A stretch of DNA of 52,933 nt from positions 1 to 52,933 of the forward strand of contig DLMY01000024.1 of assembly GCA_002478275.1 (NCBI GenBank), read 5' to 3'. Below the pieces are notes generated by a model. The model searched no databases and was not told the DNA's origin. It worked only from the letters and a program-made list of their open reading frames with translations. A program made the position numbers and the translations under genes. The DNA is from Actinobacteria bacterium UBA7524 (GTDB lineage Bacteria; Actinomycetota; Coriobacteriia; Anaerosomatales; UBA912). Shown here piece by piece: positions 7,147-49,635 of this stretch. How positions within the stretch are numbered: position 1 is the first letter of the stretch; each line of letters starts with the position of its first letter.

Positions 7147-7452
7147 TCACTCCATGAGAGCCGCGATGACGGCCTCGACCGCGTCGTCGTAGTGCGACTC
7201 GGCCTGACGCACCACGTCGCCCAGGGCGCTCTCCGCGTCCCGCTCGATCACTGCGGCCTGCGCCTCCGCGTCGCGCAGGGCGGCGGCACGCAAGGCGGCA
7301 CCCTCTTCGCCCGTCTCGCGTTCGGAGACCATGCCGATCAGCTCGACCTCGTTGCGCAGCTCCCGCATGATCTCACGGGCCTGTGTGCGGGCGTCCGCAA
7401 TCGCCCGGCGTGACGCCTCCTCGGCGTGCAATATCGCTTCGAGCTTCTCCAT
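7147..7452 (-). CDS. V/A-type ATP synthase peripheral stalk subunit G/H
   Basis: 101 aa Ala/Glu/Arg-rich helical protein (MEKLEAILHAEEASRRAIADAR). First gene of the operon, with a G-rich RBS upstream. The longer ORF to 8109 overlaps capA antisense and is spurious. Confidence 0.8.
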   Translation of the reverse strand: MEKLEAILHAEEASRRAIADARTQAREIMRELRNEVELIGMVSERETGEEGAALRAAALRDAEAQAAVIERDAESALGDVVRQAESHYDDAVEAVIAALME

Positions 7453-10354: not shown

Positions 10355-11719
10355 ATGCACATCACCCCCGAGGAGGTCGTCGAAACCCTGCTGATGATCA
10401 CCCAGCAGAATCTCGACATCCGAACGGTCACGCTGGGCCTGGCGCTGGATTCATGCGCCGACACCGACGCGGAGAAGGTCGCCGCCAAGGTCTACGAGAA
10501 GGTGGCCTCCAGCGCGAGCGAGCTCGTCCCGGTGGCAGAAGCGATCGAGCGGGAGTACGGCATCCCCATCGTGAACCGGCGAATCTCCGTCACGCCCGTG
10601 GCCCAGCTCGCGGCTGCCTGCGCATGTGGTGACATCACGGCAGTCGCACGCGCGCTGGACCGCGCCGCTGCGGAGGTAGGCGTGGACTTCATCGGAGGCT
10701 ACTCGGCGCTCGTGCACAAGGGCATCGGCGAAGGTGACCGGCTGCTGATCGACTCCATACCGCAAGCGCTCGCACAGACCGAACGCGTGTGCAGCTCGGT
10801 CAACGTCGCCTCGACCCGCGCGGGCATCAACATGGATGCCGTGTCGCGAATGGCCGCGGTCGTCCGCGAGACCGCGGAAGCAACGGCTGACAACGGCTCG
10901 TTCGGCTGCGGCAAGCTCGTGGTGTTCGCGAACATGGTCGAGGACAACCCGTTCATGGCCGGCGCCGTGCACGGTGCCGGTGAGGCCGATGCCGTCATCA
11001 ATGTGGGGATCTCAGGTCCCGGCGTGGTCCGCGCGGTCGTCGAATCGCTCTCCGAGACGGCCGATCTGACCGAGGTGGCGGAAGCCATCAAGGCGACGGC
11101 GTTCAAGATAACCCGGGCAGGAGAACTCATTGCGCGGGAAGCCGCCCGTCGTCTCGGCGCCGACATGGGGATAGTCGACCTCTCGCTGGCGCCTACACCC
11201 GCTGAGGGGGACAGCGTCGCGGCCATCATCGAGGCGATCGGTGTGAAGCGATGTGGTGGACCAGGCACCACCACAGCACTCGCCCTGCTCAACGATGCGG
11301 TCAAGAAGGGTGGTGCGATGGGGACCTCGAGCATCGGGGGGCTTTCCGGCGCGTTCATCCCCGTCTCCGAAGACGCGGGCATGATCCGGGCCGTCCAGGA
11401 GGGCGCACTGACGCTTGAGAAGCTCGAGGCGATGACAAGCGTGTGTTCGGTGGGTCTCGACATGATCGCCATCCCCGGCGATACCCCACAGGAGACCATC
11501 GCGGCCATCATCGCCGACGCGTGCGCGATCGGGGTGATAAACCACAAGACGACCGCGACACGTCTCATACCGGTGATCGGCAAGACCGTCGGAGACAGCG
11601 TAGAGTACGGGGGCCTGTTCGGCACCGCACCCGTCATGGCGGTCAACGAGTGGGCCGGCACGCGCCTGATCCGACGGGGCGGACGCTTCCCTGCGCCTCT
11701 GGGCTCGCTGCGCAACTAG
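10355..11719 (+). CDS. PFL-like family protein (UPF0210/DUF711)
   Basis: [53 protein letters not shown] and GGRFPAP motifs; the usual partner of the ACT gene. Confidence 0.93.
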
Positions 11720-11823
11720 GTGCCCTGCCAGCGATGGTGTAGTCGCGCCTGCCGACGGACGATACAATCTAACGAGACGGTCTTGTGGTTGAAGGACCGC
11801 GACCCAGCACGACAGGACGAGTC

Positions 11824-12630
11824 ATGCTCGCATCACCACTAGCCAATCCGAGCCACCGGTCACCCTCGCGAGCATCGATCGCGCTACTCCTGCTGTGCCT
11901 CCTGATACTGCTGCCCGCCACGTCTGTACACGCAGTGAGCGCCCAAGGGCGCGTCAGCGTCACACTGGGCAACGCCGACACGCTTGCGACGACGGCGTAC
12001 ACGATCGGCAACTTCCGAACCGGCAATGGTGAGACCGTGACCGGATACACGGTGAGCTTCCCCGCCGGACCAGACGTCTCGGGCGCGACGTCCGCGGGGA
12101 CAGGAGACATCGTGTCCTATCCGGCGGCAAACGCGGTGCGCGTCGAGCTCGGGACAACGATACCGCAGCGCACCACGTTCCAGATCGCGCTGGGTAACGT
12201 GATCAACCCGTCGACCGCAGGCGAATACCAGCTCGTCCAGATCGTGTTCCACCGCAACGCCGGGAACGAGACGTTCACGATGGGAGCGCGCGACGGCCTG
12301 TTCACGATCACTGCCGCACCCTTCTTGCTGCTCACGATAGAGACTCCCGACGGTTCAAGCGCGGTCGACTTCGGAGACGTCTATCCCGGCATCCCGACCG
12401 ACAGTATCGAGATCACCTTGACCGTCCAGTCATCGGACTCCTACACCATCACGCGCACCTTGGGTGGCGATGCCGCCGCACTAGGACTGATCGCAACGGG
12501 CGTTCCGGAAGACCTGCGGTCCGCCGGCACAACGGTCTACGTCGATTCGCTGACACTGGAGCCCCCGTGGGAGACCACTCCTGAGATTCCCTACACGGCA
12601 ACCGTGGACTATGCAGTCGTACAACAGTAG
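11824..12630 (+). CDS. Secreted two-domain beta protein with C-terminal pilin/WxL-like domain (putative tip adhesin)
   Basis: Sec signal peptide (…ALLLLCLLILLPATSVHA), Thr/Gly-rich beta domain, and a C-terminal ~105 aa that resembles the downstream 150-aa protein. Confidence 0.6.
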   Translation: MLASPLANPSHRSPSRASIALLLLCLLILLPATSVHAVSAQGRVSVTLGNADTLATTAYTIGNFRTGNGETVTGYTVSFPAGPDVSGATSAGTGDIVSYPAANAVRVELGTTIPQRTTFQIALGNVINPSTAGEYQLVQIVFHRNAGNETFTMGARDGLFTITAAPFLLLTIETPDGSSAVDFGDVYPGIPTDSIEITLTVQSSDSYTITRTLGGDAAALGLIATGVPEDLRSAGTTVYVDSLTLEPPWETTPEIPYTATVDYAVVQQ

Positions 12631-12742
12631 TATGCAGGCCGCGGCGACCGTTCGTCCACGCCTTCTTCCTTAACGTGTATGGCGCTTATCCTCACCATGC
12701 GTTCGTTTGTCCTGCTAGATTGGCTCCAGAATACAAGTATTT

Positions 12743-12773
12743 GCCGCTTATCGGCTGACAATGTCCGTTCATC
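12743..12773 (+). promoter_or_regulatory. Putative LytTR-binding direct repeat
   Basis: GCCGCTTATC (12743) and TCCGTTCATC (12764) are 21 bp apart. Further copies: ACCGTTCGTC (12647), GGCGCTTATC (12681), TGCGTTCGTT (12698). These fit the 9-bp repeat plus 12-bp spacer LytTR pattern. Confidence 0.6.
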
Positions 12774-12883
12774 AAAGTGCTATTGTGTCCCGTATCACAC
12801 CGCCCGATACACCCAATAGGCGCAACGCCGGGTTCGCCTCCGGCTAGAGGAGAGATTCCCCCGGAAGGAGAAGGAGAGCTGCA

Positions 12884-13336
12884 ATGAAGAAGACGTTGAT
12901 TATCGCAGTAGTGGTGGTGGCACTCGTGCTGGGTGTTGTGGCCTACGCGATCGCCGCCGACCCGCCCGTCACGGTCACGGCGAAGGTCAATCCGAAGTTC
13001 GAGCTCACGCTTGACGACAACGTGTTCACGTATGCCGATGACTATCCACTCGGCCTCGATCCCGGAGCAAGCTACACGATTGCTGGACCTGAGGTCACCG
13101 TGAAGTCCAACAAGACGTGGTCATGGACCGAAGGTGTTGTGACCGTGGCTCCCGACGATGCACTGGTGCTCGGCAAGCAGAGCCAGTACAAGATCGACTC
13201 CCAGGGCGCAGAGGGTGCCAAGGGTGTCGTGGTGATGGACTACACCTACGGCCTGGACCTGACGGCAGACGACTCCTGGGAGATCGATCCCAACGACTAC
13301 GTGTTCACCTACCCCTACACCGCACTGCAGGACTAG
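12884..13336 (+). CDS. Small secreted pilin/WxL-like protein (putative major fibre subunit)
   Basis: Signal peptide MKKTLII…AYAIA, then an alternating N-terminal strand VTVTAKV and C-terminal YVFTYPYTALQD. Strong RBS (AAGGAG) and own terminator. Confidence 0.65.
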   Translation: MKKTLIIAVVVVALVLGVVAYAIAADPPVTVTAKVNPKFELTLDDNVFTYADDYPLGLDPGASYTIAGPEVTVKSNKTWSWTEGVVTVAPDDALVLGKQSQYKIDSQGAEGAKGVVVMDYTYGLDLTADDSWEIDPNDYVFTYPYTALQD

Positions 13337-13360
13337 TACTACAGGCACTCACACGGATGC

Positions 13361-13390
13361 AGAAAGGGCGCCCCGCAGGGCGCCCTTTCT
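13361..13390. terminator. Bidirectional intrinsic terminator
   Basis: Perfect 13-bp stem AGAAAGGGCGCCC-cgca-GGGCGCCCTTTCT between convergent genes. Confidence 0.85.
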
Positions 13391-13417
13391 CGTTGCCTGA
13401 ACTCCGCCCTGGCGGGT

Positions 13418-14533
13418 TCACTCCCTCGCGTCATCGGGGATCACGTCCTCGAACGTGACCTCCGCCTCATCGATATCAAGGACCTGCGTCTCAGCCTCGG
13501 GCTCGCGCGCCTCCTCCCGCTCGCTACGACGCGCCGCTACACGCCTGGATCCGCGCGTCGACACACGGTAGACGACGTAGAGCACCGGCAGTGCGAGGAT
13601 CACGATCACGACGATGATGATCCATAGCGGGATCACCCAGATCGAGCGCTCCACGGTATCCGAAGCATCTTCGAAAGTCCCCTGGGCGTCACCCAGCTCC
13701 CGCTGGTACTCGACGATACCGCGAAGGGTGTACTTGCCGAAGCCGACACCTTCGAAGTTGAGTCCGCCGCCGTATGTGCGGTCATCACCTGCATACAGGT
13801 TGACGTCCGCCTCCAGCTCGTCGGTCCAAACCACCTCTTCGCCCTCGCCCACCAGAGCGAGACCGGTCGTGATCTTGTTGTCGATGTTCCCTGTGTTCCG
13901 GACCCTCAGGTCGAACTCGGTCTTGTTCGTCCATGCGAACTGGGAAGCCAACAACGGGCCGATCTCGACCTTGTCTACGATGTCTCCGACCACCCTCAAG
14001 TCGATACGGCTACCGATGCGGCCCTGCGCCCTGGAAACCGCCCCACCGCCACCCACCTCGGCGAAGTCGAACATCTCGAAGAAGATGGCCGCATTGTAGT
14101 CACCCGGTGCGGCCCCTGGCGGGACGACCACCTCGAACTTGACGGGGAATTCCTCACCCGGAGCTATCTCGAGATACGGTGTGTTCGCGACCACCTTGGT
14201 CGCATCGGGAATCTCCAGTCTGATCCAGGACGCAGCGCTACTCAGGTAGTTGTCGGCGCCTGGAGCCGGACGCACATAGTCCTGCTTGCCCTCTTCGTCC
14301 GCGACGATGTCGGCTGTATAGATAAGCGCCATGAACGGCTCATCGCCGTTGTTCGCGACCATCACCAGATCGGATGCCGATTGCCCGGGCGCCAACGACG
14401 GCTCGAACGTGCCACTGCTCAAGCCGATGGTGCGCTCCGCAAAGGCGGAAGACGGAACAACCAGGCCAACGCACAGCGCAAGAGACACGATGGCTATCCA
14501 CGCCCCCCGCTTCCGCACACGATCGCCGATCAT
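13418..14533 (-). CDS. DUF916/WxL-interacting-like, PapD-chaperone-like two-Ig-domain protein with C-terminal membrane anchor
   Basis: Signal peptide (…PSSAFA); domain 1 LAPGQS..VANNGD…SWI…IAPGEE..VKFEVVVPPGAAPGDY.AAI; domain 2 VRNTGN…GKYTL; TM helix WVIPLWIIIVVIVILALPVL and a basic/acidic cytoplasmic tail. Confidence 0.7.
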   Translation of the reverse strand: MIGDRVRKRGAWIAIVSLALCVGLVVPSSAFAERTIGLSSGTFEPSLAPGQSASDLVMVANNGDEPFMALIYTADIVADEEGKQDYVRPAPGADNYLSSAASWIRLEIPDATKVVANTPYLEIAPGEEFPVKFEVVVPPGAAPGDYNAAIFFEMFDFAEVGGGGAVSRAQGRIGSRIDLRVVGDIVDKVEIGPLLASQFAWTNKTEFDLRVRNTGNIDNKITTGLALVGEGEEVVWTDELEADVNLYAGDDRTYGGGLNFEGVGFGKYTLRGIVEYQRELGDAQGTFEDASDTVERSIWVIPLWIIIVVIVILALPVLYVVYRVSTRGSRRVAARRSEREEAREPEAETQVLDIDEAEVTFEDVIPDDARE

Positions 14534-15288
14534 ATTCCTACCGCCTCTCGGAACTGGCGCGCCTGCCGACGCGCGACCGGGATATGAGTCTCGTCACGGT
14601 CTCCGGCGACCACGACGTTAGCACCGTCCACCCTCAGGATCTCCTTGATCTTGTTCAGGTTGACCATGTAGGACCGGTGGACCCTGACGAAGCTCTCCTT
14701 CGACAGTCGGCACTCGAGCTCGCCCAAGGTCATGTCAACCAGGTACTGGTTCTCGAAGGTGTGAGCGTACGTCGACTTGTTACGCGCAGACAGGAAGACG
14801 ATGTCTTCGATGGACAACAGCACGGTACGGCCACCCTTGCGGACCGCCAGCTTGCGGAAGTCGCTCTCGGACACGGAGGTCGTCTCCCCGAGTGCCTTTC
14901 GTCGGCCCTTGGCCAGGCTCTCGACCCGAGCGGCGAGTTCCAGGATGTTGAATGGCTTCGTCACGTACTGCTGGACGCCCTGTTTGAAGGCGAGGATCTT
15001 GGCCAGGTCCTGCGTCTTGGCGCTGAGCATGATGACGGGAAGGTCGGCGGTGACCGGGTTGTTCCTGATCTCCATCAAGGCCATCCAGCCATCGACACGC
15101 GGCATCATGATGTCGAGTACCACGACATCGACGGGTTCGCGCCCCAGGACCTCGATCCCCTCGGCGCCGTCCCCGGCGCCGAACACCTTCATCCCGTCGG
15201 CCTCAAGCCCCATCTTGATCATCTCGACGATGGATTCATCGTCGTCGATGACAAGAACGCTTATCTCATCCGCCATCGGCACCGCCAT
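14530..15288 (-). CDS. Response regulator, REC + LytTR DNA-binding domain (orphan)
   Basis: VLVIDDD, LDIMMPRVDG, MLSAK and YVTKPF, then LytTR FVRVHRSYMVNLNKI and IPVARR. Its stop overlaps the DUF916-like start (ATGA). The start may be 15276. Confidence 0.92.
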   Translation of the reverse strand: MAVPMADEISVLVIDDDESIVEMIKMGLEADGMKVFGAGDGAEGIEVLGREPVDVVVLDIMMPRVDGWMALMEIRNNPVTADLPVIMLSAKTQDLAKILAFKQGVQQYVTKPFNILELAARVESLAKGRRKALGETTSVSESDFRKLAVRKGGRTVLLSIEDIVFLSARNKSTYAHTFENQYLVDMTLGELECRLSKESFVRVHRSYMVNLNKIKEILRVDGANVVVAGDRDETHIPVARRQARQFREAVGI

Positions 15289-15397
15289 CCAGTCGCGGAC
15301 GAACGGCGATCATGCCGTTCATCTCCCCAGTCCGCCACTGAGTATAGCGCATGAACCGTCGGGTAGGACTACCGGGCCGTGCGGCAGGTTGCGGCGC

Positions 15398-15847
15398 TCA
15401 GCGCCTCGCCCCCAGGGGGCGCTGCGGGTCCCCAAGTCGCAGACCCGTCTCGACGACCGATTCCAGTGTCGTCTCGCCAAGATAGGACTCAATGCGGGCG
15501 TCGAGCACGTTCCATACCACCTGGTGATACGGACACGATCCCTCGCGCTCGCAGACGGCCATCTCTCCTGTGCAGAGTGCTAAGGAGGCAGGCTCGTCCA
15601 TAGCCCGGAACACATCCAGAAGGCTGATCGCCGATGCGGGACGCGCGAGTTCGACGCCTCCGTGGACGCCCCGGCGCGACTTCAGCAGTCCGGCGGAGAC
15701 AAGCGAAGCGGCGATGCCTCGTGCGTAGTCATAGGGGATACCGGCTGCTTCCGACAGTTGCCTGACGGTAGCCCGCCTCTGGGGACGCGCTCTGGCAAGC
15801 TCGTAGATGAGCCTCATCGCGTAGTCGGTGCGCCACGTGATCGCCAC
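15398..15847 (-). CDS. Rrf2-family transcriptional regulator (Fe-S type)
   Basis: TDYAMR, LKSRRGVHGG.ELARP..ISLLDV, and C-x6-C-x5-C-x2-H. Confidence 0.9.
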   Translation of the reverse strand: MAITWRTDYAMRLIYELARARPQRRATVRQLSEAAGIPYDYARGIAASLVSAGLLKSRRGVHGGVELARPASAISLLDVFRAMDEPASLALCTGEMAVCEREGSCPYHQVVWNVLDARIESYLGETTLESVVETGLRLGDPQRPLGARR

Positions 15848-33665: not shown

Positions 33666-33784
33666 TGTTATGAAGCTCCCATGCTTGGGGAATCTTGGAA
33701 TTGACGTGTACGACCCTCGTGCAGACTATACCGCGATTTCCCGGCCGCGGGGGCGTCTTCATCGGACCTAGGGGAGGCAGGGCG

Positions 33785-34168
33785 ATGAGTGATACTGGGA
33801 TAGTGAGGCGCGTCGACGACCTCGGCCGGGTCGTCATACCGATGGAACTGCGCCGTACACTCGGGATCAGGGTGAAGGACCCGATCTCGATTCACGTGGA
33901 GGGTGAACGGATCATCTTGCAGAAGCANNNNNNNNNNNNNNNNNNNNNNNNNNNNNNNNNNNNNNNNNNNNNNNNNNNNNNNNNNNNNNNNNNNNNNNNN
34001 NNNNNNNNNNNNNNNNNNNNNNNNNNNNNNNNNNNNNNNNAACGGATCATCTTGCAGAAGCACGTAGACTCTTGCGTGATATGCGGCGATACTGAGGAGA
34101 CGGCGCTCTTCAAGGGTAGACCCCTGTGCACCGCATGTGTACGGGAGATTCGAAAGGGCAGCCGGTGA
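33785..34168 (+). CDS. abrB: AbrB transition-state regulator with C-terminal Cys4 domain (~82 aa after collapsing the false gap)
   Basis: TGIVRRVDDLGRVVIPMELRRTLGI…IILQK…CVICG…LCTAC. The same 22 nt flank both sides of the gap. Confidence 0.92.
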   Translation: MSDTGIVRRVDDLGRVVIPMELRRTLGIRVKDPISIHVEGERIILQKXXXXXXXXXXXXXXXXXXXXXXXXXXXXXXXXXXXXXXXRIILQKHVDSCVICGDTEETALFKGRPLCTACVREIRKGSR

Positions 34169-44343: not shown

Positions 44344-46188
44344 TCAGGGCAGCAGCTGTCCAATCTGAGTCTTGACGCTTTCGGTCACCGCGACCGCCCC
44401 GCCAAAGAGCATCGCGTGATTCACGCTTGCGGCGTTCGTCTCGAGTGCCGTCTTCGTGGAACCGGGCACCGAAGCTGGCCTGGTGAGCAACAGAACCCCG
44501 CCGCGACTCCCGCAAGCCGCCCCGCCGGACAAAGCGTCGGGGAAGTTAGCGCCTGTGGCCAGGCCGACGAACCCGAAGTCGCCCCATCCGCGACCGACAG
44601 CGTGGCCGGCGAGCTGACTGGCCGTCTCGTAGCGGTCGCGTCCGGCGATCCTCGTAGCCGCGAAGCCGCCATTAAGAGACTCCAGTGCGGTCTCGACCGT
44701 CGCTTGCACTGCAGTAGTACCACCCACGATGGTGACATCGGTGATGTTCTTGCCGTCGATGAAGCTCTGAGTGTGCTTGTTCAGACTCCCCGGACGTGTG
44801 AGCAGGATCGGTGTCCCTTGAGAATATGCGAACGGCGAGGCTGCAAGCGCATCGGCGAAGTCATCGCCACGCACCACGAACGCTGCGCCCGGGGTTCCCT
44901 TGAGCCTCGTGATCTCGTCAGCCACCTTGCGCGCTGTCTCGTATCGGTCCGCGCCGGCGATGCGAGTGACGGTGTGGCCGAACCAGTCAAGCATCCAGTC
45001 GACCTCGTCGCTGACGGCCGAGTATCCGCCGACTACATAACACTTCTGCACGCCAAGGCGGTCCAGCTCGTTCAAGAACGCCAAGTACGTGTCCCAACTG
45101 GCGTTCTCCTTGGGCGCGAGCAGCAACGGAGCGTCGAGAGCCCCGGCCAATCCCGATGCCGCCAACGCATCGGCGAATCCAGCTCCCGTTGCTATGACCG
45201 CATGGTCGGCAGTGGCGAAGTTGGCCTTTGAGGTCTCATAGGAGGTCGTGTACCGGTTCGCGCCCGAAACGCGAGAGACCTTCGGCGAGGCGGTCGACCA
45301 TGTCAACGAGTAGGAGCCGTCGGTGATTCCGGCGCTCACCTCGGCGAAGACGCGGCCCTGACCTCCCGGCGGGCAATGGTAGACGATCGTCTCCGACGAG
45401 GTGCCCTCGGTGATCGAGTACTTGACCGGTGACTGACTCCACGCTGAGGTGCTGCCGGCCTGATACAGGTACAGGTCGAATCCACCTTCACCGAACATGG
45501 TCCCGCTGGGGCCCGTGAGGATCAGGGTCAGCTCCTGGTCCACATCGACGTCGAACCCATATACGTCGCTCGGGTCATCGCGCCAATTCAGCGTCCCGCT
45601 TGTGCTGCCGTTGGACGTGCCGGGCACGTTCGCACCAGGGATGTCGTCGTCCCCTGCGAGTGTATGCTTCCGCCATGCGACCGTGTAGCTGCCCGCGTAG
45701 TCGGACCAGAGGTTGAGAACGGCGATGTAGTAGGTTCCCGTGTCAGCAGCGTATCCGCTCATGCGCTGACTCGTGTAGGTGACATCCGTTCCGAAAGCGA
45801 CCACCGCGTCCTCCCACACACTCGTCGATCCGGGAGGCAGCATGGCGAGCAGAAGGTAGGACGTCGACGGCATGGTCAACTCGACGGTGAACAACTCGCC
45901 CTGGTTCAAGTCGACGCTATACACATCGATAGGCGGTATCCCCGAGAAGTCCTCGCTCGGAGTGAACTTCGACGCTGTCCTGCTGAAGGGCGACGCCGGT
46001 ATCGGTTCGCCGGGAATCTCCGACACGAGAGCGCCGACCGTGTTCGTCGAAATCCCAGTCGCACTCCTGATGGAGTCTCTGTCCGGGTTCGACCAGGGCG
46101 CCGCTCCGGCGACGATCGGTTGCGCCAATAGCATGACGGCGAGAGCCGCTACGAGCGCGCGAGTGCGCAAAGAAGACACAGAAGCCAT
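44344..46188 (-). CDS. Cell-wall binding repeat 2 (CWB2) surface protein with two PPC-like domains
   Basis: Signal peptide; two beta domains (DVY…L…GTYYI; DVY…FDLYLY…); three repeats of G.[DN]RY.T…DAL…[IL]LL. Confidence 0.88.
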   Translation of the reverse strand: MASVSSLRTRALVAALAVMLLAQPIVAGAAPWSNPDRDSIRSATGISTNTVGALVSEIPGEPIPASPFSRTASKFTPSEDFSGIPPIDVYSVDLNQGELFTVELTMPSTSYLLLAMLPPGSTSVWEDAVVAFGTDVTYTSQRMSGYAADTGTYYIAVLNLWSDYAGSYTVAWRKHTLAGDDDIPGANVPGTSNGSTSGTLNWRDDPSDVYGFDVDVDQELTLILTGPSGTMFGEGGFDLYLYQAGSTSAWSQSPVKYSITEGTSSETIVYHCPPGGQGRVFAEVSAGITDGSYSLTWSTASPKVSRVSGANRYTTSYETSKANFATADHAVIATGAGFADALAASGLAGALDAPLLLAPKENASWDTYLAFLNELDRLGVQKCYVVGGYSAVSDEVDWMLDWFGHTVTRIAGADRYETARKVADEITRLKGTPGAAFVVRGDDFADALAASPFAYSQGTPILLTRPGSLNKHTQSFIDGKNITDVTIVGGTTAVQATVETALESLNGGFAATRIAGRDRYETASQLAGHAVGRGWGDFGFVGLATGANFPDALSGGAACGSRGGVLLLTRPASVPGSTKTALETNAASVNHAMLFGGAVAVTESVKTQIGQLLP

Positions 46189-46347
46189 ACCGAACCCCTC
46201 TCAGGAAGAATCGTGCACGGCCCCGCGCATGAATCACGCTGATCACGCCTGAACCGGACGCACCCCATCACTTCACCGATTGTGGCCGAGGAAGGCGTTC
46301 CTGTCCATGCAGCCCAGCGGCGAGCCGAAGTACGGGGGTGGCGACCT

Positions 46348-47790
46348 CTACGGTATGAGAGCCTCCACCTGAGTCCGGACCTCCTCGGAGAGTACGGCCG
46401 TCCCACCGAAGACCAAGGCTTGCGTCCCAGGGGACGCCTTCTGCCCGAGTAATCCGGAGACGGGTGTCGAGAGCGCGGCCGGGCGCGTCAGCAACAGCGC
46501 CCCGCCTCCCCTCATACCGCACGCCGCCCCGCCCGAGAGCGCGTCCGGGAAGTTCACGCCGGTCGCGATGCCGAACCGCTCCCAGCTGCCCCACCCGCGC
46601 TCGTCGACCGAGTAGCGCGCCACCTCCACGGCCGTCGCATATCTGTCAGACCCGGCCTTGCGATCCACCTGAGTCGCACCGCCGTTCAACGTCCGGAGGC
46701 TCGATTCGACCGACGGACCGACCGCGGCGGTACCGCCGGCGATGACGACGTCCGTCACATCCCGAGCCTCTATGAACGTGGCCGCCTGTGCGTGCAGGCT
46801 GGATGTCCTGGTGAGCAGCACCGGTATAGAGCGATGGTACGCGTATGGCGCGACCGCCAGGGCATCGGCGAAGTCATCGCCCCTGACAACGAACGCCTGA
46901 GTGACGTTCCCTGTGCGCTGACGGGTCTCCTCGGCGACAAGACGGGCCGTCTCGTAGCGATCGCGACCACCGATGCGTTTCGCGGATGTGACGAACTGCG
47001 AGTTGTTCTCGATCTGGCCGAAGACGAAATCGTTGACGGCCGAGCTACCACCGACCACGAGCACGGTCTTCGCGCGCAGGCGAGTAAGCTCACGCTGAAA
47101 CGCGACCAGGCGCGTGTCGCCACTGTTCGTCGCAGGCGGTGCGAGAAGGACCGGGCCGTCCACGGCGCCAGCCAGACTCGCGGCCGCAAGAGCGTCAGGG
47201 AAGCCGGCGCCGCTCGCGACGACAACCGTGTCGGCGGTCGTGAAGCTGCTCCGGCTTATCGCGTAGGAGGTCCGGTAGCGGTCGGCGCCGGACAGGCGCG
47301 GAGCCTTCGGGAAGTAGTGGGAGAACGTGAGCGTATACGCTCCCGAGCCCTGGAACGTCGAGACCTCGATGTAGTAGGTCCCGCCGCCCCCAGGCGGGAT
47401 GAGGACGCCTATCGACTCGCCGGAAGTGGACGGGGTCGCCGAGGCGGCCACCAGATAGTGGTCCTCCGGAGGCGCTGTAGGCGTAGCGGTCTCGGACAAG
47501 ACGACGTCAGTCGAGTAGAGTTCGAGGTCGAAATCGGTGCCCGCAGGGCCGGTCAGGGTGAACTGGGCCCACATGTCCTCGGTCAGGATGACCTGATAGC
47601 GATCGTGGAAGTCCGTACCGTAGGTGAGTGTGCCGGGCTGCGTGCCGCTGGCATGCAGAACGGGGGCATCAACGAAGGTGTCGTCATCTGCCGCGATGGC
47701 TGCGGGTGCGCCTGACGCGATCCAGAGCGCCCAGACCAGAGCGAACGCCGTGAGGCGGCGGAACGGCGACTTCAGCAACATCGGCAACAT
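46348..47790 (-). CDS. CWB2 surface protein with one PPC-like domain
   Basis: Signal peptide; LTGPAGTDFDLELY…GTYYIEV..F.GSGAYTL; three CWB2 repeats. Confidence 0.88.
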   Translation of the reverse strand: MLPMLLKSPFRRLTAFALVWALWIASGAPAAIAADDDTFVDAPVLHASGTQPGTLTYGTDFHDRYQVILTEDMWAQFTLTGPAGTDFDLELYSTDVVLSETATPTAPPEDHYLVAASATPSTSGESIGVLIPPGGGGTYYIEVSTFQGSGAYTLTFSHYFPKAPRLSGADRYRTSYAISRSSFTTADTVVVASGAGFPDALAAASLAGAVDGPVLLAPPATNSGDTRLVAFQRELTRLRAKTVLVVGGSSAVNDFVFGQIENNSQFVTSAKRIGGRDRYETARLVAEETRQRTGNVTQAFVVRGDDFADALAVAPYAYHRSIPVLLTRTSSLHAQAATFIEARDVTDVVIAGGTAAVGPSVESSLRTLNGGATQVDRKAGSDRYATAVEVARYSVDERGWGSWERFGIATGVNFPDALSGGAACGMRGGGALLLTRPAALSTPVSGLLGQKASPGTQALVFGGTAVLSEEVRTQVEALIP

Positions 47791-47865
47791 ACCTCTCTCG
47801 CTGTCAGGTCCTCACAGTGGCCATGGTCCGGGTCCGCTGCGGGGTTTGTCTCTCCTCGGCAGGTA

Positions 47866-49560
47866 TCAGAACGGGACCGGGCCGGTCCACACGTCCAGGG
47901 GCTCATGCACGTATTGCGACACGGCGGCGGTCCCGCCGAAAACGTAGGAGCGAAGGATCGCCGGATCGCTCGCGAACCAGTAGTCCATCCCCCGGGTGAT
48001 CTTCTGCGGGTCACTGAAGTCGAAATCCGCACACACCCAGGGCGAGATACGAGTCGCCGGGGTCAGCAGGATCGGCGAGCCCGCCAGTCCACACAGTACG
48101 CCGCCGGCCAACGCGTCCGGGAAGTTCTCACCCGAAGCAAGGCCGATACGGGCGAAGTCGAGGGTCTCGAGCGCCGATGGGTTGCCGACGGTTCCCACCT
48201 TGGCGGTCCCGGTACTGACTCCCGTGGCCCATATCCCGAAGTGCCGGGCGGTCTCATAACGGGAATTGCCCGCGAGACGCAAGACCCTCGAGGATCCGAC
48301 TATCGCGGCGACCTGGTCGCGGACCGTGCGGGAGATGACCGCCTCACCTCCGACGATGACCACATCGGTGATGCCCAGTGCGGGATCCTTGAGTGCGGCC
48401 TCGACCTCCGGGTCGAGCGTCGCTTCGCGGGTGAGCAGGATGGGCGCCGCGTTGTATGCGGCCATCGGTGAGGCAGCAAGCGCATCCGGGAAGTTGTGCG
48501 AGTTGACGATGAACGCCAGTCTCGCGGTGGGCCCGAGCTCTGCTGCCTTCTTGGCGACCTGCCTGGCTGTCGCCGCGCGCCTGTCACCGGCTACACGCAC
48601 CACGGTGATGCTGTGCGCAGCGAGAGCGTTCACTACGACATCTGAGACCGCCGCCGGGCCACCCAGCACGTACACGGTGTCCACTCCCAGCCGGAGGATC
48701 TCGTCGCGGACCACGTCTGGAAGCCTGTCGTCAGGCGTGAGGAGTACCGGACCACCGACCGCTCCGGCGAGTGTCGATCCCGACAGCGCGTCAGGGAACG
48801 CGTAGCCGTTCGCGAGCACCGCCGCGCCTGACTCGGGCCCCTCGACCGGGAAGCGCTCCTGCGACACGGCGATCGCCGTGCGGAACCGGTTGTCGCCCGC
48901 CAGACGCGACATCTGGCCTGTCTTCATGCGAAGGGTGTAGGGTCCGTCTCCGCCCCGAAATCCGGGGTCGGTGCCTCCTGCATGCTGGTAGTAGGGCCGT
49001 ATCCGCACATAGTAGACGCCGGCGACCTGGGGCAGGAATGAAAGTGAGGCATGCGAGCCCGTCATCCATGTCGTGTTGTAGGCGAGTGTCTGGCCGGGCT
49101 GGATGGCCACGGGATCGATCTGCGTGACCTCGGGGTCGCCCACGCTCGGTCCAAGGGAGCCGGGAGGCGTAGGAGTGCGAGTGCCGGGACCGTAGATCTC
49201 CAGGACGGGAGAGACGTTCGACGCGCCAGGAACCGCCTCGAAGACGTACGAGAAGCCCGAGCTGATAGCGTCTGCGTCGACCGAGAACCTGACCCAGTCC
49301 TCATCGGAAGCAGGAGTGCCATCGTCGACGAAGTGGAACGTTCGCGTCTGCGCACCCATCGGCTCGCCGAAGTACCCCGTCATACCGGACTGGCCGAGGA
49401 TATCTCCGACATCCCGCGCGGTACCGAGCGTGTTGTCCGCCTCGAACGCGTCTGCGGACGCGGCCATGACCGCGAACGGACCACTGGCCACGATCGCGCC
49501 GGCCAGAACCACAGCGAGCAGGGACTTCACGCTCTTCGATCGCAGCAACAGCTCCACCAC
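47866..49560 (-). CDS. CWB2 surface protein with an expanded PPC-like N-domain
   Basis: Signal peptide; DAFEADNT…DEDWVRF…GVYYVRI…PYTL; three CWB2 repeats. Start approximate. Confidence 0.85.
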   Translation of the reverse strand: MVELLLRSKSVKSLLAVVLAGAIVASGPFAVMAASADAFEADNTLGTARDVGDILGQSGMTGYFGEPMGAQTRTFHFVDDGTPASDEDWVRFSVDADAISSGFSYVFEAVPGASNVSPVLEIYGPGTRTPTPPGSLGPSVGDPEVTQIDPVAIQPGQTLAYNTTWMTGSHASLSFLPQVAGVYYVRIRPYYQHAGGTDPGFRGGDGPYTLRMKTGQMSRLAGDNRFRTAIAVSQERFPVEGPESGAAVLANGYAFPDALSGSTLAGAVGGPVLLTPDDRLPDVVRDEILRLGVDTVYVLGGPAAVSDVVVNALAAHSITVVRVAGDRRAATARQVAKKAAELGPTARLAFIVNSHNFPDALAASPMAAYNAAPILLTREATLDPEVEAALKDPALGITDVVIVGGEAVISRTVRDQVAAIVGSSRVLRLAGNSRYETARHFGIWATGVSTGTAKVGTVGNPSALETLDFARIGLASGENFPDALAGGVLCGLAGSPILLTPATRISPWVCADFDFSDPQKITRGMDYWFASDPAILRSYVFGGTAAVSQYVHEPLDVWTGPVPF

Positions 49561-49635
49561 GCCCTTCTTCACACTCGTGCGCACACCCGTCCTGGGCCCC
49601 GTCGGCTGCAGCGGGCTACCCTGTCCCTGCACATC

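Follow-up and report, generated by a model that had tools for sequence, protein, structure and literature searches.

How could a bacterium with a single membrane build a pilus when the locus that encodes it holds neither a sortase nor an usher? The question is raised by four genes, P1 to P4, at positions 11824-15288 of a stretch of DNA from Actinobacteria bacterium UBA7524 (assembly GCA_002478275.1, contig DLMY01000024.1, forward strand); the whole stretch analysed, 52,933 nucleotides (nt), is called the window here. P1 (11824..12630, plus strand) encodes a secreted two-domain protein of 268 amino acids (aa), a candidate tip or minor subunit, and P2 (12884..13336, plus) a secreted pilin-like protein of 150 aa, about 125-126 aa when mature, which we propose as the major subunit. 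The other two genes lie on the minus strand: P3 (13418..14533, 371 aa) encodes a candidate membrane-tethered chaperone of the WxLIP type (DUF916/DUF3324), and P4 (14530..15288, 252 aa) a response regulator with REC and LytTR domains. Third-position G+C of the four (0.76-0.84) is typical for genuine genes of this genome. A first-pass annotation, made from the sequence, had proposed a chaperone-assembled fibre under a dedicated regulator. We computed gene content, synteny, folds, a predicted P3-P2 interface and the architecture of the LytTR-type boxes, and give a probability of roughly 0.65 to the reading that the locus encodes a sortase- and usher-independent, chaperone-guided donor-strand pilus together with its transcriptional switch.

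The signal peptide of P2, whose ATG is preceded by a GGAG-rich ribosome-binding site, ends in A-x-A, and P-P-V-T-V-T-A-K-V-N-P-K follows. Conservation was measured in 133 aligned P2-family sequences (alignment A3: the window protein and 132 of the 150 relatives listed, 18 having been dropped for a partial profile match or an offset start). The signal-peptidase site is conserved at A22 and A24 (96% each), the alternating strand at V29 (93%), V31 (85%), A33 (84%) and V35 (66%), with N36 and P37 after it, the S75-N76 motif at 93% and 100%, and the aromatic C-terminal strand FTYPYTALQ at Y145 (92%), T146 (85%) and Q149 (84%). Apart from the SN motif, V-x-V-x-A-x-V is the best-conserved part of the protein. 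The AlphaFold2 (AF2) model is all-beta, with a predicted local distance difference test score (pLDDT) of 93.5, and leaves residues 18-38 outside every sheet; since its first sheet strand begins at residue 39, VTVTAKV lies outside the sheets. We propose residues 29-35 as the donor strand and residues 39-43 and 140-149 as the edge strands of the acceptor.

The P2 family has no Pfam entry. A word-index search with P2 returned only four proteins, and 20 with the 133-sequence profile; an exhaustive profile search found 370 cluster representatives (50% identity) at E<=1e-3, 159 of them at E<=1e-10, and the 150 of the 370 that were listed are 113-179 aa long. Neither P2 nor P1 matches the WxL family (PF13731) at E<=1, and among the 133 aligned sequences no Pfam family matches more than four members at E<=0.1; PF13731 is absent from the 25 of 51 families listed for them, so that at most one member could carry it. 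P2 itself has only degenerate aromatic-x-aliphatic motifs, [YFW]-x-[LFIV] at 79-81 and [WY]-x-[TLV] at 132-134. NCBIfam returned nothing for P1, P2 or P3.

By fold, 10 of the 11 top Foldseek matches of P2 in the PDB are subunits of donor-strand-exchange fibres (PapK, TasA, FimF, CfaB, TLP-1a, CS17 and FimG), all at non-significant scores. All 30 ESM Atlas feature matches listed for P2 are clusters without a common Pfam family; the nearest clusters that have one are SCPU (Csu-type pilin) and WxL, both at 0.89, which we treat as leads only. Matches of the P2 profile to PDB sequences were spurious (Fab light chains through a bacterial signal peptide, and sub-threshold TLP-2 and BspA).

P1 carries the same domain at its C-terminus. 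BLASTP between P1 and P2 is not significant (E 5.5), and hhalign of the two families, with 14 orthologues from related loci on the P1 side (alignment A4), aligns P2 34-150 with P1 163-268 at a probability of 99.5% and E 2.1e-23. P1 therefore begins with a signal peptide, continues with an N-terminal domain of some 120 aa that belongs to no family and ends in a pilin domain (163-268). For the N-terminal domain the sole Pfam match was a sub-threshold one to DUF2808 (E 4e-4), and an Atlas search with residues 38-165 found nothing above 0.89; a match to BslA at 0.86 was treated as chance. In other genomes the position of P1 is taken by proteins of 850-960 aa with FixG_C, MG2 and VWA7-type Ig repeats. 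Since these share the C-terminal domain of P1, the build is modular: the payload varies, and the pilin domain comes after it.

P3 would supply the chaperone. Its match to PF06030 (DUF916) has E 0.091 and 13.2 bits against a cut-off of 27.3, and spans positions 15-119 of the 121 in the profile. Its family, represented by 36 of 57 word-search relatives (alignment A2; partial sequences, near-duplicates and the three most distant were omitted), matches PF06030 at E<=0.01 in 15 members, best 2.4e-7, and the generic Ig domain NPCBM_assoc in 20. PF11797 (DUF3324) matches 0 of the 36 at E<=0.01, not being one of the seven Pfam families that do, and P3 itself not at E<=1. The AF2 model (pLDDT 88.9) consists of a signal helix, two beta-sandwiches (36-181 and 189-301) and a helix (303-342) that opens with the membrane anchor, after which comes a charged cytoplasmic tail. 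Foldseek places it nearest to WxLIP (9i1y_A, E 6.1e-11) and to WxLIP bound to long WxL (9i25_C, 5.3e-10), followed by the chaperones CfaA (6k73_B, 1.9e-9), CsuC (5d6h_A, 1e-7) and YadV (5ghu). The WxLIP alignments run over 277-278 columns at 14-16% identity, with template-modelling (TM) scores of 0.38-0.40 when normalised by the query and 0.50-0.53 by the target; searched against PDB sequences, the P3-family profile hits only two EfmWxLIP1 chains (E ~0.05). A hairpin at 144-181 has strands 144-156 and 168-181, and its second strand (167-174) is the predicted donor strand of the chaperone. This strand shows the highest conservation in the family, R172 and G174 being invariant and G171 and R176 nearly so in the 36 sequences. 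The descriptions that the first-pass annotation had given of these proteins thus hold up: P2 as a secreted beta protein with an alternating N-terminal and an aromatic C-terminal strand, P1 as ending in a homologue of it, both without a clear WxL motif, and P3, encoded convergently, as a membrane-anchored two-Ig-domain protein like DUF916 and PapD.

A prediction of the P3-P2 complex had also been called for. We modelled the P3 ectodomain (33-302, with A2) with mature P2 (25-150, with A3) in three runs alongside three controls. The complex scored 0.74 (runs 0.77, 0.72 and 0.74), against 0.00 for the best control, the score being a model confidence and not a measurement. Among solved complexes the pass mark is reached by 116 of 157, among mismatched pairs by 2 of 215; we used our own alignments, so that this calibration holds roughly. 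Contacts agree between runs to at least 89%, with a partner pLDDT of at least 80. The P3:P2 residue pairs of lowest predicted error form a parallel series (167:141, 168:142, 169:143, 170:144, 171:145, 172:146, 173:147) and an antiparallel one (35:42, 36:41, 37:40, 38:39), and P2 25-34, which includes most of the VTVTAKV strand, is not among the confident contacts. The model supports binding with strand complementation of the chaperone type. The predicted two-strand clamp of P3 on the first and last strands of P2 resembles the A1 and G1 strands of the archaic and alternative chaperone-usher chaperones.

From these parts the following assembly route can be put together, in which we infer that the subunits polymerise, what P1 and P2 do, how the fibre is anchored and which way P4 regulates. 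P2 and P1 would be exported by Sec, and tethered P3 would capture each subunit at the outer face of the membrane, laying its residues 167-174 parallel to 141-148 of the subunit and 35-38 against the first strand (39-42), while the V-x-V-x-A-x-V strand stays free. The free strand of an incoming P2 would then displace the chaperone strand on the previous subunit (donor-strand exchange) and so give a linear P2 polymer; what speaks for polymerisation through VTVTAKV is the conservation of V29, V31, A33 and V35. P1, or elsewhere the Ig-repeat protein of 850-960 aa, would be the distal or adhesive subunit; P1 may instead be incorporated in the fibre. Since no LPXTG protein is present, the fibre would probably be retained through its last chaperone-bound subunit, or else be released as matrix. 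P4, an orphan regulator, would bind phased 9-bp boxes before the pilin-type genes and activate them, and would also bind a box in its own leader.

The regulator and its boxes can be described more closely. P4 has the architecture of a LytTR-family response regulator (PF00072 at 11-122, E 9.2e-26; PF04397 at 154-250, E 4.2e-24); the NCBIfam model BtsR matches at E 3.4e-27, below its own cut-off. The P4 TGA stop and the P3 ATG overlap by 4 nt as ATGA, which couples the two genes translationally in the window. Ahead of P2 stands a direct pair of 9-bp LytTR-type boxes, CCGCTTATC and CCGTTCATC with a 12-nt spacer (12744..12773, plus strand; boxes at 12744 and 12765), 119 nt before the P2 ATG and the only such pair in the 52.9-kb window. 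Going by the letters, we propose it as a candidate P4 binding site. Both the coupling and the LytTR-type repeats upstream of P2 had been pointed out in the first-pass annotation, and both were found again here.

The arrangement is conserved upstream of P2 homologues. A k-mer count in 38 P2-upstream regions found CCGTTCGTC, with at most one mismatch, in 26, where the maxima of 10 shuffles were 10-13. If direct pairs are defined as having at most two mismatches in total and 19-22 nt from start to start, 574,599 nt of sequence contain 44 of them, from 28 of the 51 sources; in five mononucleotide shuffles the counts were 1, 3, 0, 0 and 0. We count 35 of the 44 as being on the side and the strand of the pilin, ahead of small-pilin, P1-type, large-adhesin and mini-protein genes. 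The spacing, which is the more independent signal because the motif was counted in the very sequences that had yielded it, is 20 nt in 22 cases and 21 nt in 16, most other spacings from 10 to 23 nt occurring 1-6 times, with minor peaks at 24, 29 and 39 nt. The 2002 description of the LytTR domain reportedly gave a broader consensus. LytTR sites of the form 9 bp-12 bp-9 bp, such as ACCGCTTAT-12 bp-ACCGCTTAT, are given in the available part of PMC6193735.

Upstream of P4 a -10-like element, TG-n3-TATACT (15351-15341), is followed by two perfect inverted boxes, GATGAACGG...CCGTTCGTC (15298..15323), which lie between that element and the P4 start and form a candidate autoregulatory operator. About 30 of 48 upstream regions (own tally) have a box in minus orientation that precedes the P4 start by 26-50 nt, and nine of the 48 have the full inverted pair. 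The box in the leader suggests that P4 may regulate its own gene.

As regards the pilin promoter, a palindromic block conserved in related loci (L019, L020, L023, L024, L028, L031-L034, L036, L041 and others) was noticed about 14 nt past the second box upstream of the pilin: ACACTATT(c/g)c GCCGTACGGC, phased at 20 nt to the promoter-proximal box, like a third, degenerate box. About 45 nt further downstream CCGATAC is conserved; the window has CCGATAC (12804-12810) without the palindrome. CCGATAC may be the -10 element of the pilin promoter, and was preferred for that role to ACACTAT, which follows directly on the second box in other loci. In AgrA the promoter-proximal box is centred near -60, according to the available part of PMC4227749; if CCGATAC is the -10, the corresponding box here would also be centred near -60. 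The likeness to AgrA and other LytTR systems extends to the REC and LytTR domains and to 9-bp direct repeats 11-12 nt apart (20-21 start to start). Unlike those systems, the locus encodes neither an adjacent kinase nor a peptide pheromone or LRS membrane inhibitor, the conserved neighbour upstream of P4 being a GltD-like oxidoreductase, and the target is a pilus module.

Does the module recur as a unit? A pattern scan over one genome per GTDB species gave 50 loci, which were read with three family hidden Markov models on six-frame open reading frames (ORFs); their labels are Coriobacteriia, Anaerosomatales, Actinomycetes or Actinomycetota metagenome-assembled genomes (MAGs), except for four 'uncultured Eubacteriales'. 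In all 49 testable loci the P4 orthologue ends at most 12 nt from the P3 start (the 50th locus starts within P3), and 35 of the 38 loci with at least 1.5 kb past P3 have a full-length small pilin there; co-occurrence in other genomes, which the first-pass annotation had named as a check, is thus found. The pilin gene is convergent with P3 everywhere except in L012 and L022. Of the 33 loci with at least 4.5 kb beyond P3, 13 have a P1-type gene and 10 a gene of the large adhesin type, 23 in all. The flanks are constant, with M23 peptidase, ApbE, PyrK-like and GltD-like genes on the P4 side (the last in 45 of 50) and DUF711 (34 of 50), ACT and PGA_cap genes on the pilin side. As site and flanks are the same in all, the module is old and vertically kept. 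P3, P2 and P1 of the other loci have median identities of 37%, 35% and 34% to those of the window, against 75% for P4, 79% for the GltD-like protein and 77% for DUF711: the surface parts P1-P3 evolve fast, and P4 is as conserved as its housekeeping neighbours.

Several variants were seen among these loci. Between the main pilin and the chaperone, the closest relatives of the window encode a second small pilin paralogue, about 163 aa long, whose strand reads ESASVxVTARI and whose C-terminus has FGYTAxQR (all minus strand: L004:7561-8055, L005:7557-8051, L006:7770-8261, L007:2454-2945, L008:7443-7940, L010:7474-7962, L013:2160-2681); it is missing from the window and from L001. A third gene class adjoins the chaperone in 13 loci and is not present in the window (L018:7069-7359, minus strand; L019, L023, L024, L034, L036, L038 and L040-L044; L005:7063-7434). 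It encodes secreted proteins, 95-123 aa long, in which a signal peptide like that of P2 and a GTVTVxAxV strand precede a short domain ANxPW...YWVV; they lack LPXTG and a transmembrane segment, and many have their own phased LytTR box pair upstream. They could be terminators or adaptors that have a donor strand and no acceptor domain, like ElrB (see below) minus its sorting signal. In two loci the small pilin is in pieces (L039:6789-7589 and 7148-7396; L047:7264-7665), with model positions 1-61 and 69-140 in different ORFs; these genes may be frameshifted, or the assemblies in error.

Genes for covalent anchoring and for outer-membrane export were looked for and are absent. The 3904 ORFs of the window and the 50 loci hold no credible LPXTG sorting signal, the one regular-expression match being an unrelated 79-aa ORF in L030 far from the module, and no TLxTC sortase motif; this search covers the window and the loci, and a sortase may be encoded elsewhere in the genome. 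No sortase, usher or histidine kinase (HisKA, HATPase_c) was matched by Pfam at E<=1e-5 in the 44 other window ORFs, and the Pfam scan of the window shows no signal-peptidase gene. What the first-pass annotation had said on the absence of LPXTG, sortase and usher therefore agrees with the motif and Pfam scans; the prepilin motif, which it also gave as lacking, was not specifically searched for.

The closest known system is the Elr pilus (elrABCDE) of E. faecalis, described in a preprint of 17 October 2026 (bioRxiv 10.64898/2026.10.17.759780), to the available part of which the statements on it in this text are confined. There ElrD is reported as a WxL pilin that polymerises by donor-strand exchange, from electron cryomicroscopy, pull-downs and mutants; ElrE, a DUF916/DUF3324 membrane protein, is its chaperone and runs a strand in parallel with the one at the C-terminus of ElrD, leaving the donor strand outside. 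ElrA is modelled as tip adhesin and the LPxTG protein ElrB as assembly terminator, and an srtA mutant sheds pilus subunits. Operons combining PF06030, PF11797 and PF13731 were found in Bacillota only (48 of 4,698 genera), a 'small Actinomycetota satellite' is mentioned among the chaperones, and a regulator lies nearby at only 2 of the 12 E. faecalis WxL loci.

The two loci share a small pilin, a larger protein that ends in a pilin domain, and a two-Ig chaperone with a C-terminal transmembrane helix. In both, a hairpin of the chaperone provides a strand at a similar position (ElrE 141-152; predicted P3 167-174), in parallel with the strand at the subunit's C-terminus, the N-terminal strand of the subunit lies outside the confident contacts, and the tip proteins are built of modules, of which the pilin domain is the last. 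The Foldseek neighbours of the chaperones overlap as well, since CsuC (5D6H) and CfaA (6K73) are among the four chaperones that the preprint names for ElrE. The differences are as follows. Our locus is in Actinomycetota (Coriobacteriia-type MAGs), the operons of the preprint in Bacillota only; P3 falls below the gathering thresholds of PF06030 and PF11797, and P2 lacks PF13731; mature P2 has about 125-126 aa against 234 in ElrD; and the donor strand reads V-x-V-x-A-x-V-N-P instead of [S/T]-x-[G/A]-x-[V/I]-x-F. Within the Coriobacteriia loci neither an LPxTG terminator nor a sortase is found, LPxTG/sortase anchoring being optional in WxL pili, and REC-LytTR is coupled to the chaperone here, whereas LytTR has 0 occurrences in the available preprint text.

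The interpretation put forward in the first-pass annotation is supported, each part of it that was examined having come out as it had inferred. The mechanism proposed for the Coriobacteriia locus is no longer new, having been demonstrated for Elr, and the locus is less novel than that annotation had taken it to be; it escapes all three Pfam definitions used in the preprint. In our classification it is a divergent variant of WxL pili, outside the WxL family as currently defined.

Two further systems bear on P3. The E. faecium WxL locus A (WxLIP with long WxL; 9i1y and 9i25; PMC10599100, available part) provides its best structural matches and its only PDB sequence matches. The partner there is a WxL protein, unlike P2, which is not a recognisable WxL domain, and the identity to P3 is 14-16%. 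Archaic and alternative chaperone-usher systems (Csu, with CsuC and CsuA/B; CFA/I, with CfaA and CfaB) share the chaperone fold, and an SCPU cluster is an Atlas lead for P2; here an usher and a periplasm are lacking, P3 has no match to PapD_N (PF00345) at E<=1 and is membrane-anchored, and the host is a monoderm.

Several results count against the donor-strand pilus. The P2 Foldseek matches have E 0.03-0.09 and TM scores of 0.25-0.41, and the 50 that were listed do not include the WxL chain of 9i25. P2 31-40 has a pLDDT of 97 in the monomer model, the N-terminal segment being partly modelled as packed and not free. The pass of the P3-P2 complex may partly be recall, because solved chaperone-subunit complexes exist (chaperone-usher; 9i25, January 2026). 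P3 is below the PF06030 threshold and its family shows no PF11797. An intact small pilin is missing from three of the 38 loci (L003 is without one, and L039 and L047 have fragments only). On the regulatory side, the box motif was counted in its own source sequences with shuffles that keep only mononucleotide content, no LytTR box pair stands upstream of P1 in the window (the best candidate has seven mismatches), and a simple sigma-70 promoter and terminator scan of 11650-15450 gave zero sites, promoters included.

Could P3 then hold P2 without a fibre? On the older view of WxL and DUF916 proteins, P3 would be an anchor that displays a single P2 or P1 by strand complementation. P3-P2 is indeed the sole interaction modelled, no anchor or terminator gene is present in the window, and DUF916/DUF3324 is described, in the part of PMC10599100 available, as a binder of WxL that links the surfaces of bacterium and host. 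Such a display complex leaves unexplained the conserved V-x-V-x-A-x-V strand, which falls outside the confident P3 contacts (25-34); the nearest, if weak, fold matches of P2 are polymerising pilins; and Elr, alike in architecture and once read in this way, proved to be a pilus. We consider the display complex unlikely.

P2 might instead assemble by itself into a matrix fibre of the TasA type, P3 being an unrelated, co-regulated Ig-like surface protein. TasA and TLP-1 are sortase-free fibres with N-terminal donor strands and weak fold matches to P2 (8aur_A, 9ikj_A), TLP-1a being described as a donor-strand fibre in the available part of PMC11494351. The TasA fibre 8aur_A is the second Foldseek match of P2 (E 0.043, non-significant), some P3 relatives are named 'COG1361 family protein', and 20 of the 36 match NPCBM_assoc. 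The subunits of those fibres are about twice as large (233-236 residues in the Foldseek table), Peptidase_M73/TasA is found neither for P2 nor among the families listed for its 133 aligned family sequences, and the window has no signal-peptidase gene of the SipW type. No dedicated Ig-type chaperone gene is known to adjoin that of the TasA subunit. Here, the predicted P3-P2 interface is specific and passes its controls, the fold of P3 is nearest to WxLIP and chaperone-usher chaperones and not to S-layer proteins, and in 35 of 38 loci a pilin gene is linked to P3; a chaperone-free fibre is thus a highly improbable account. That the four genes are mere neighbours, with boxes due to chance or to another regulator, is scarcely credible: the whole neighbourhood is syntenic, so that adjacency alone is weak evidence, and P4, at 75% median identity next to 79% for the GltD-like protein, may therefore have a wider regulon, but P4 and P3 are translationally coupled in the window and at most 12 nt apart in 49 of 49 loci, phased boxes concentrate before pilin-type genes, and the predicted P3-P2 binding passes its controls.

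If the locus does encode a chaperone-guided donor-strand pilus, its place among such pili is of interest. The sole demonstrated Gram-positive example is the October 2026 report, where it is described as confined to Bacillota. Since our locus fails all three Pfam models of that census and yet shares the logic, the fold and the predicted geometry, the pathway is probably broader than the census. More tentatively, the locus could represent a separate old branch of chaperone-guided donor-strand pili, with a minimal pilin of about 125 aa between WxL and archaic Csu/SCPU, P3 as the sole anchor and a phospho-activated LytTR switch. Atlas look-alike clusters of the pilin family are labelled Bipolaricaulota and Methanobacteriota (0.93-0.94, leads only); if these were true relatives, chaperone-guided assembly would be widespread in uncultured monoderms, perhaps in archaea, and older than the usher and sortase anchoring. 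The pilin family, 370 clusters without a Pfam entry, could seed a new search model. A compact subunit without a sortase anchor makes a minimal system for the requirements of chaperone-driven polymerisation on a monoderm surface, and a coupled REC-LytTR gene with recognisable operators is a testable handle on the timing of pilus production, the regulatory inputs of WxL systems being little known as far as the available preprint text goes.

Some smaller features of the locus complete the description. Between the convergent genes P2 and P3 lies a GC-rich hairpin of 13 bp with flanking runs of A and U (13361..13390), which is probably a bidirectional terminator for both; the RNA fold of 13330-13425 has -44.1 kcal/mol (z = -3.7), equalled in 0 of 200 shuffles, and the simple terminator scan left the hairpin unflagged. 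A single perfect LytTR-type box, CCGTTCGTC, is found at 12648..12656 (plus strand). A 16-nt repeat, GTGTATGGCGCTTATC and GTATTTGCCGCTTATC, 62 nt apart, was set aside as not LytTR-phased; only its second copy overlaps the phased pair. Next to P4 the window has a gene for an Rrf2-family regulator (15398-15847, minus), between GltD-like and P4. None of the 50 related loci has a homologue of it at E<=1e-10; there P4 comes directly after the GltD-like gene.

Elsewhere in the window, a low G+C of 0.37 in the first 2 kb was considered as a sign of foreign DNA or an intein and rejected as an artefact, positions 1-2750 having runs of N within a V-type ATPase A-subunit gene. An ORF with a MazE-type antitoxin domain (33695-34168, plus), at a third-position G+C of 0.54 against 0.74-0.87 in its neighbours, may be a recent acquisition. 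Three tandem genes at 44344-49632 (minus) encode proteins of 480-614 aa with three CWB2 repeats each (E ~1e-51 to 1e-53), a trio that fits a monoderm envelope with non-covalently held wall or S-layer-type proteins.

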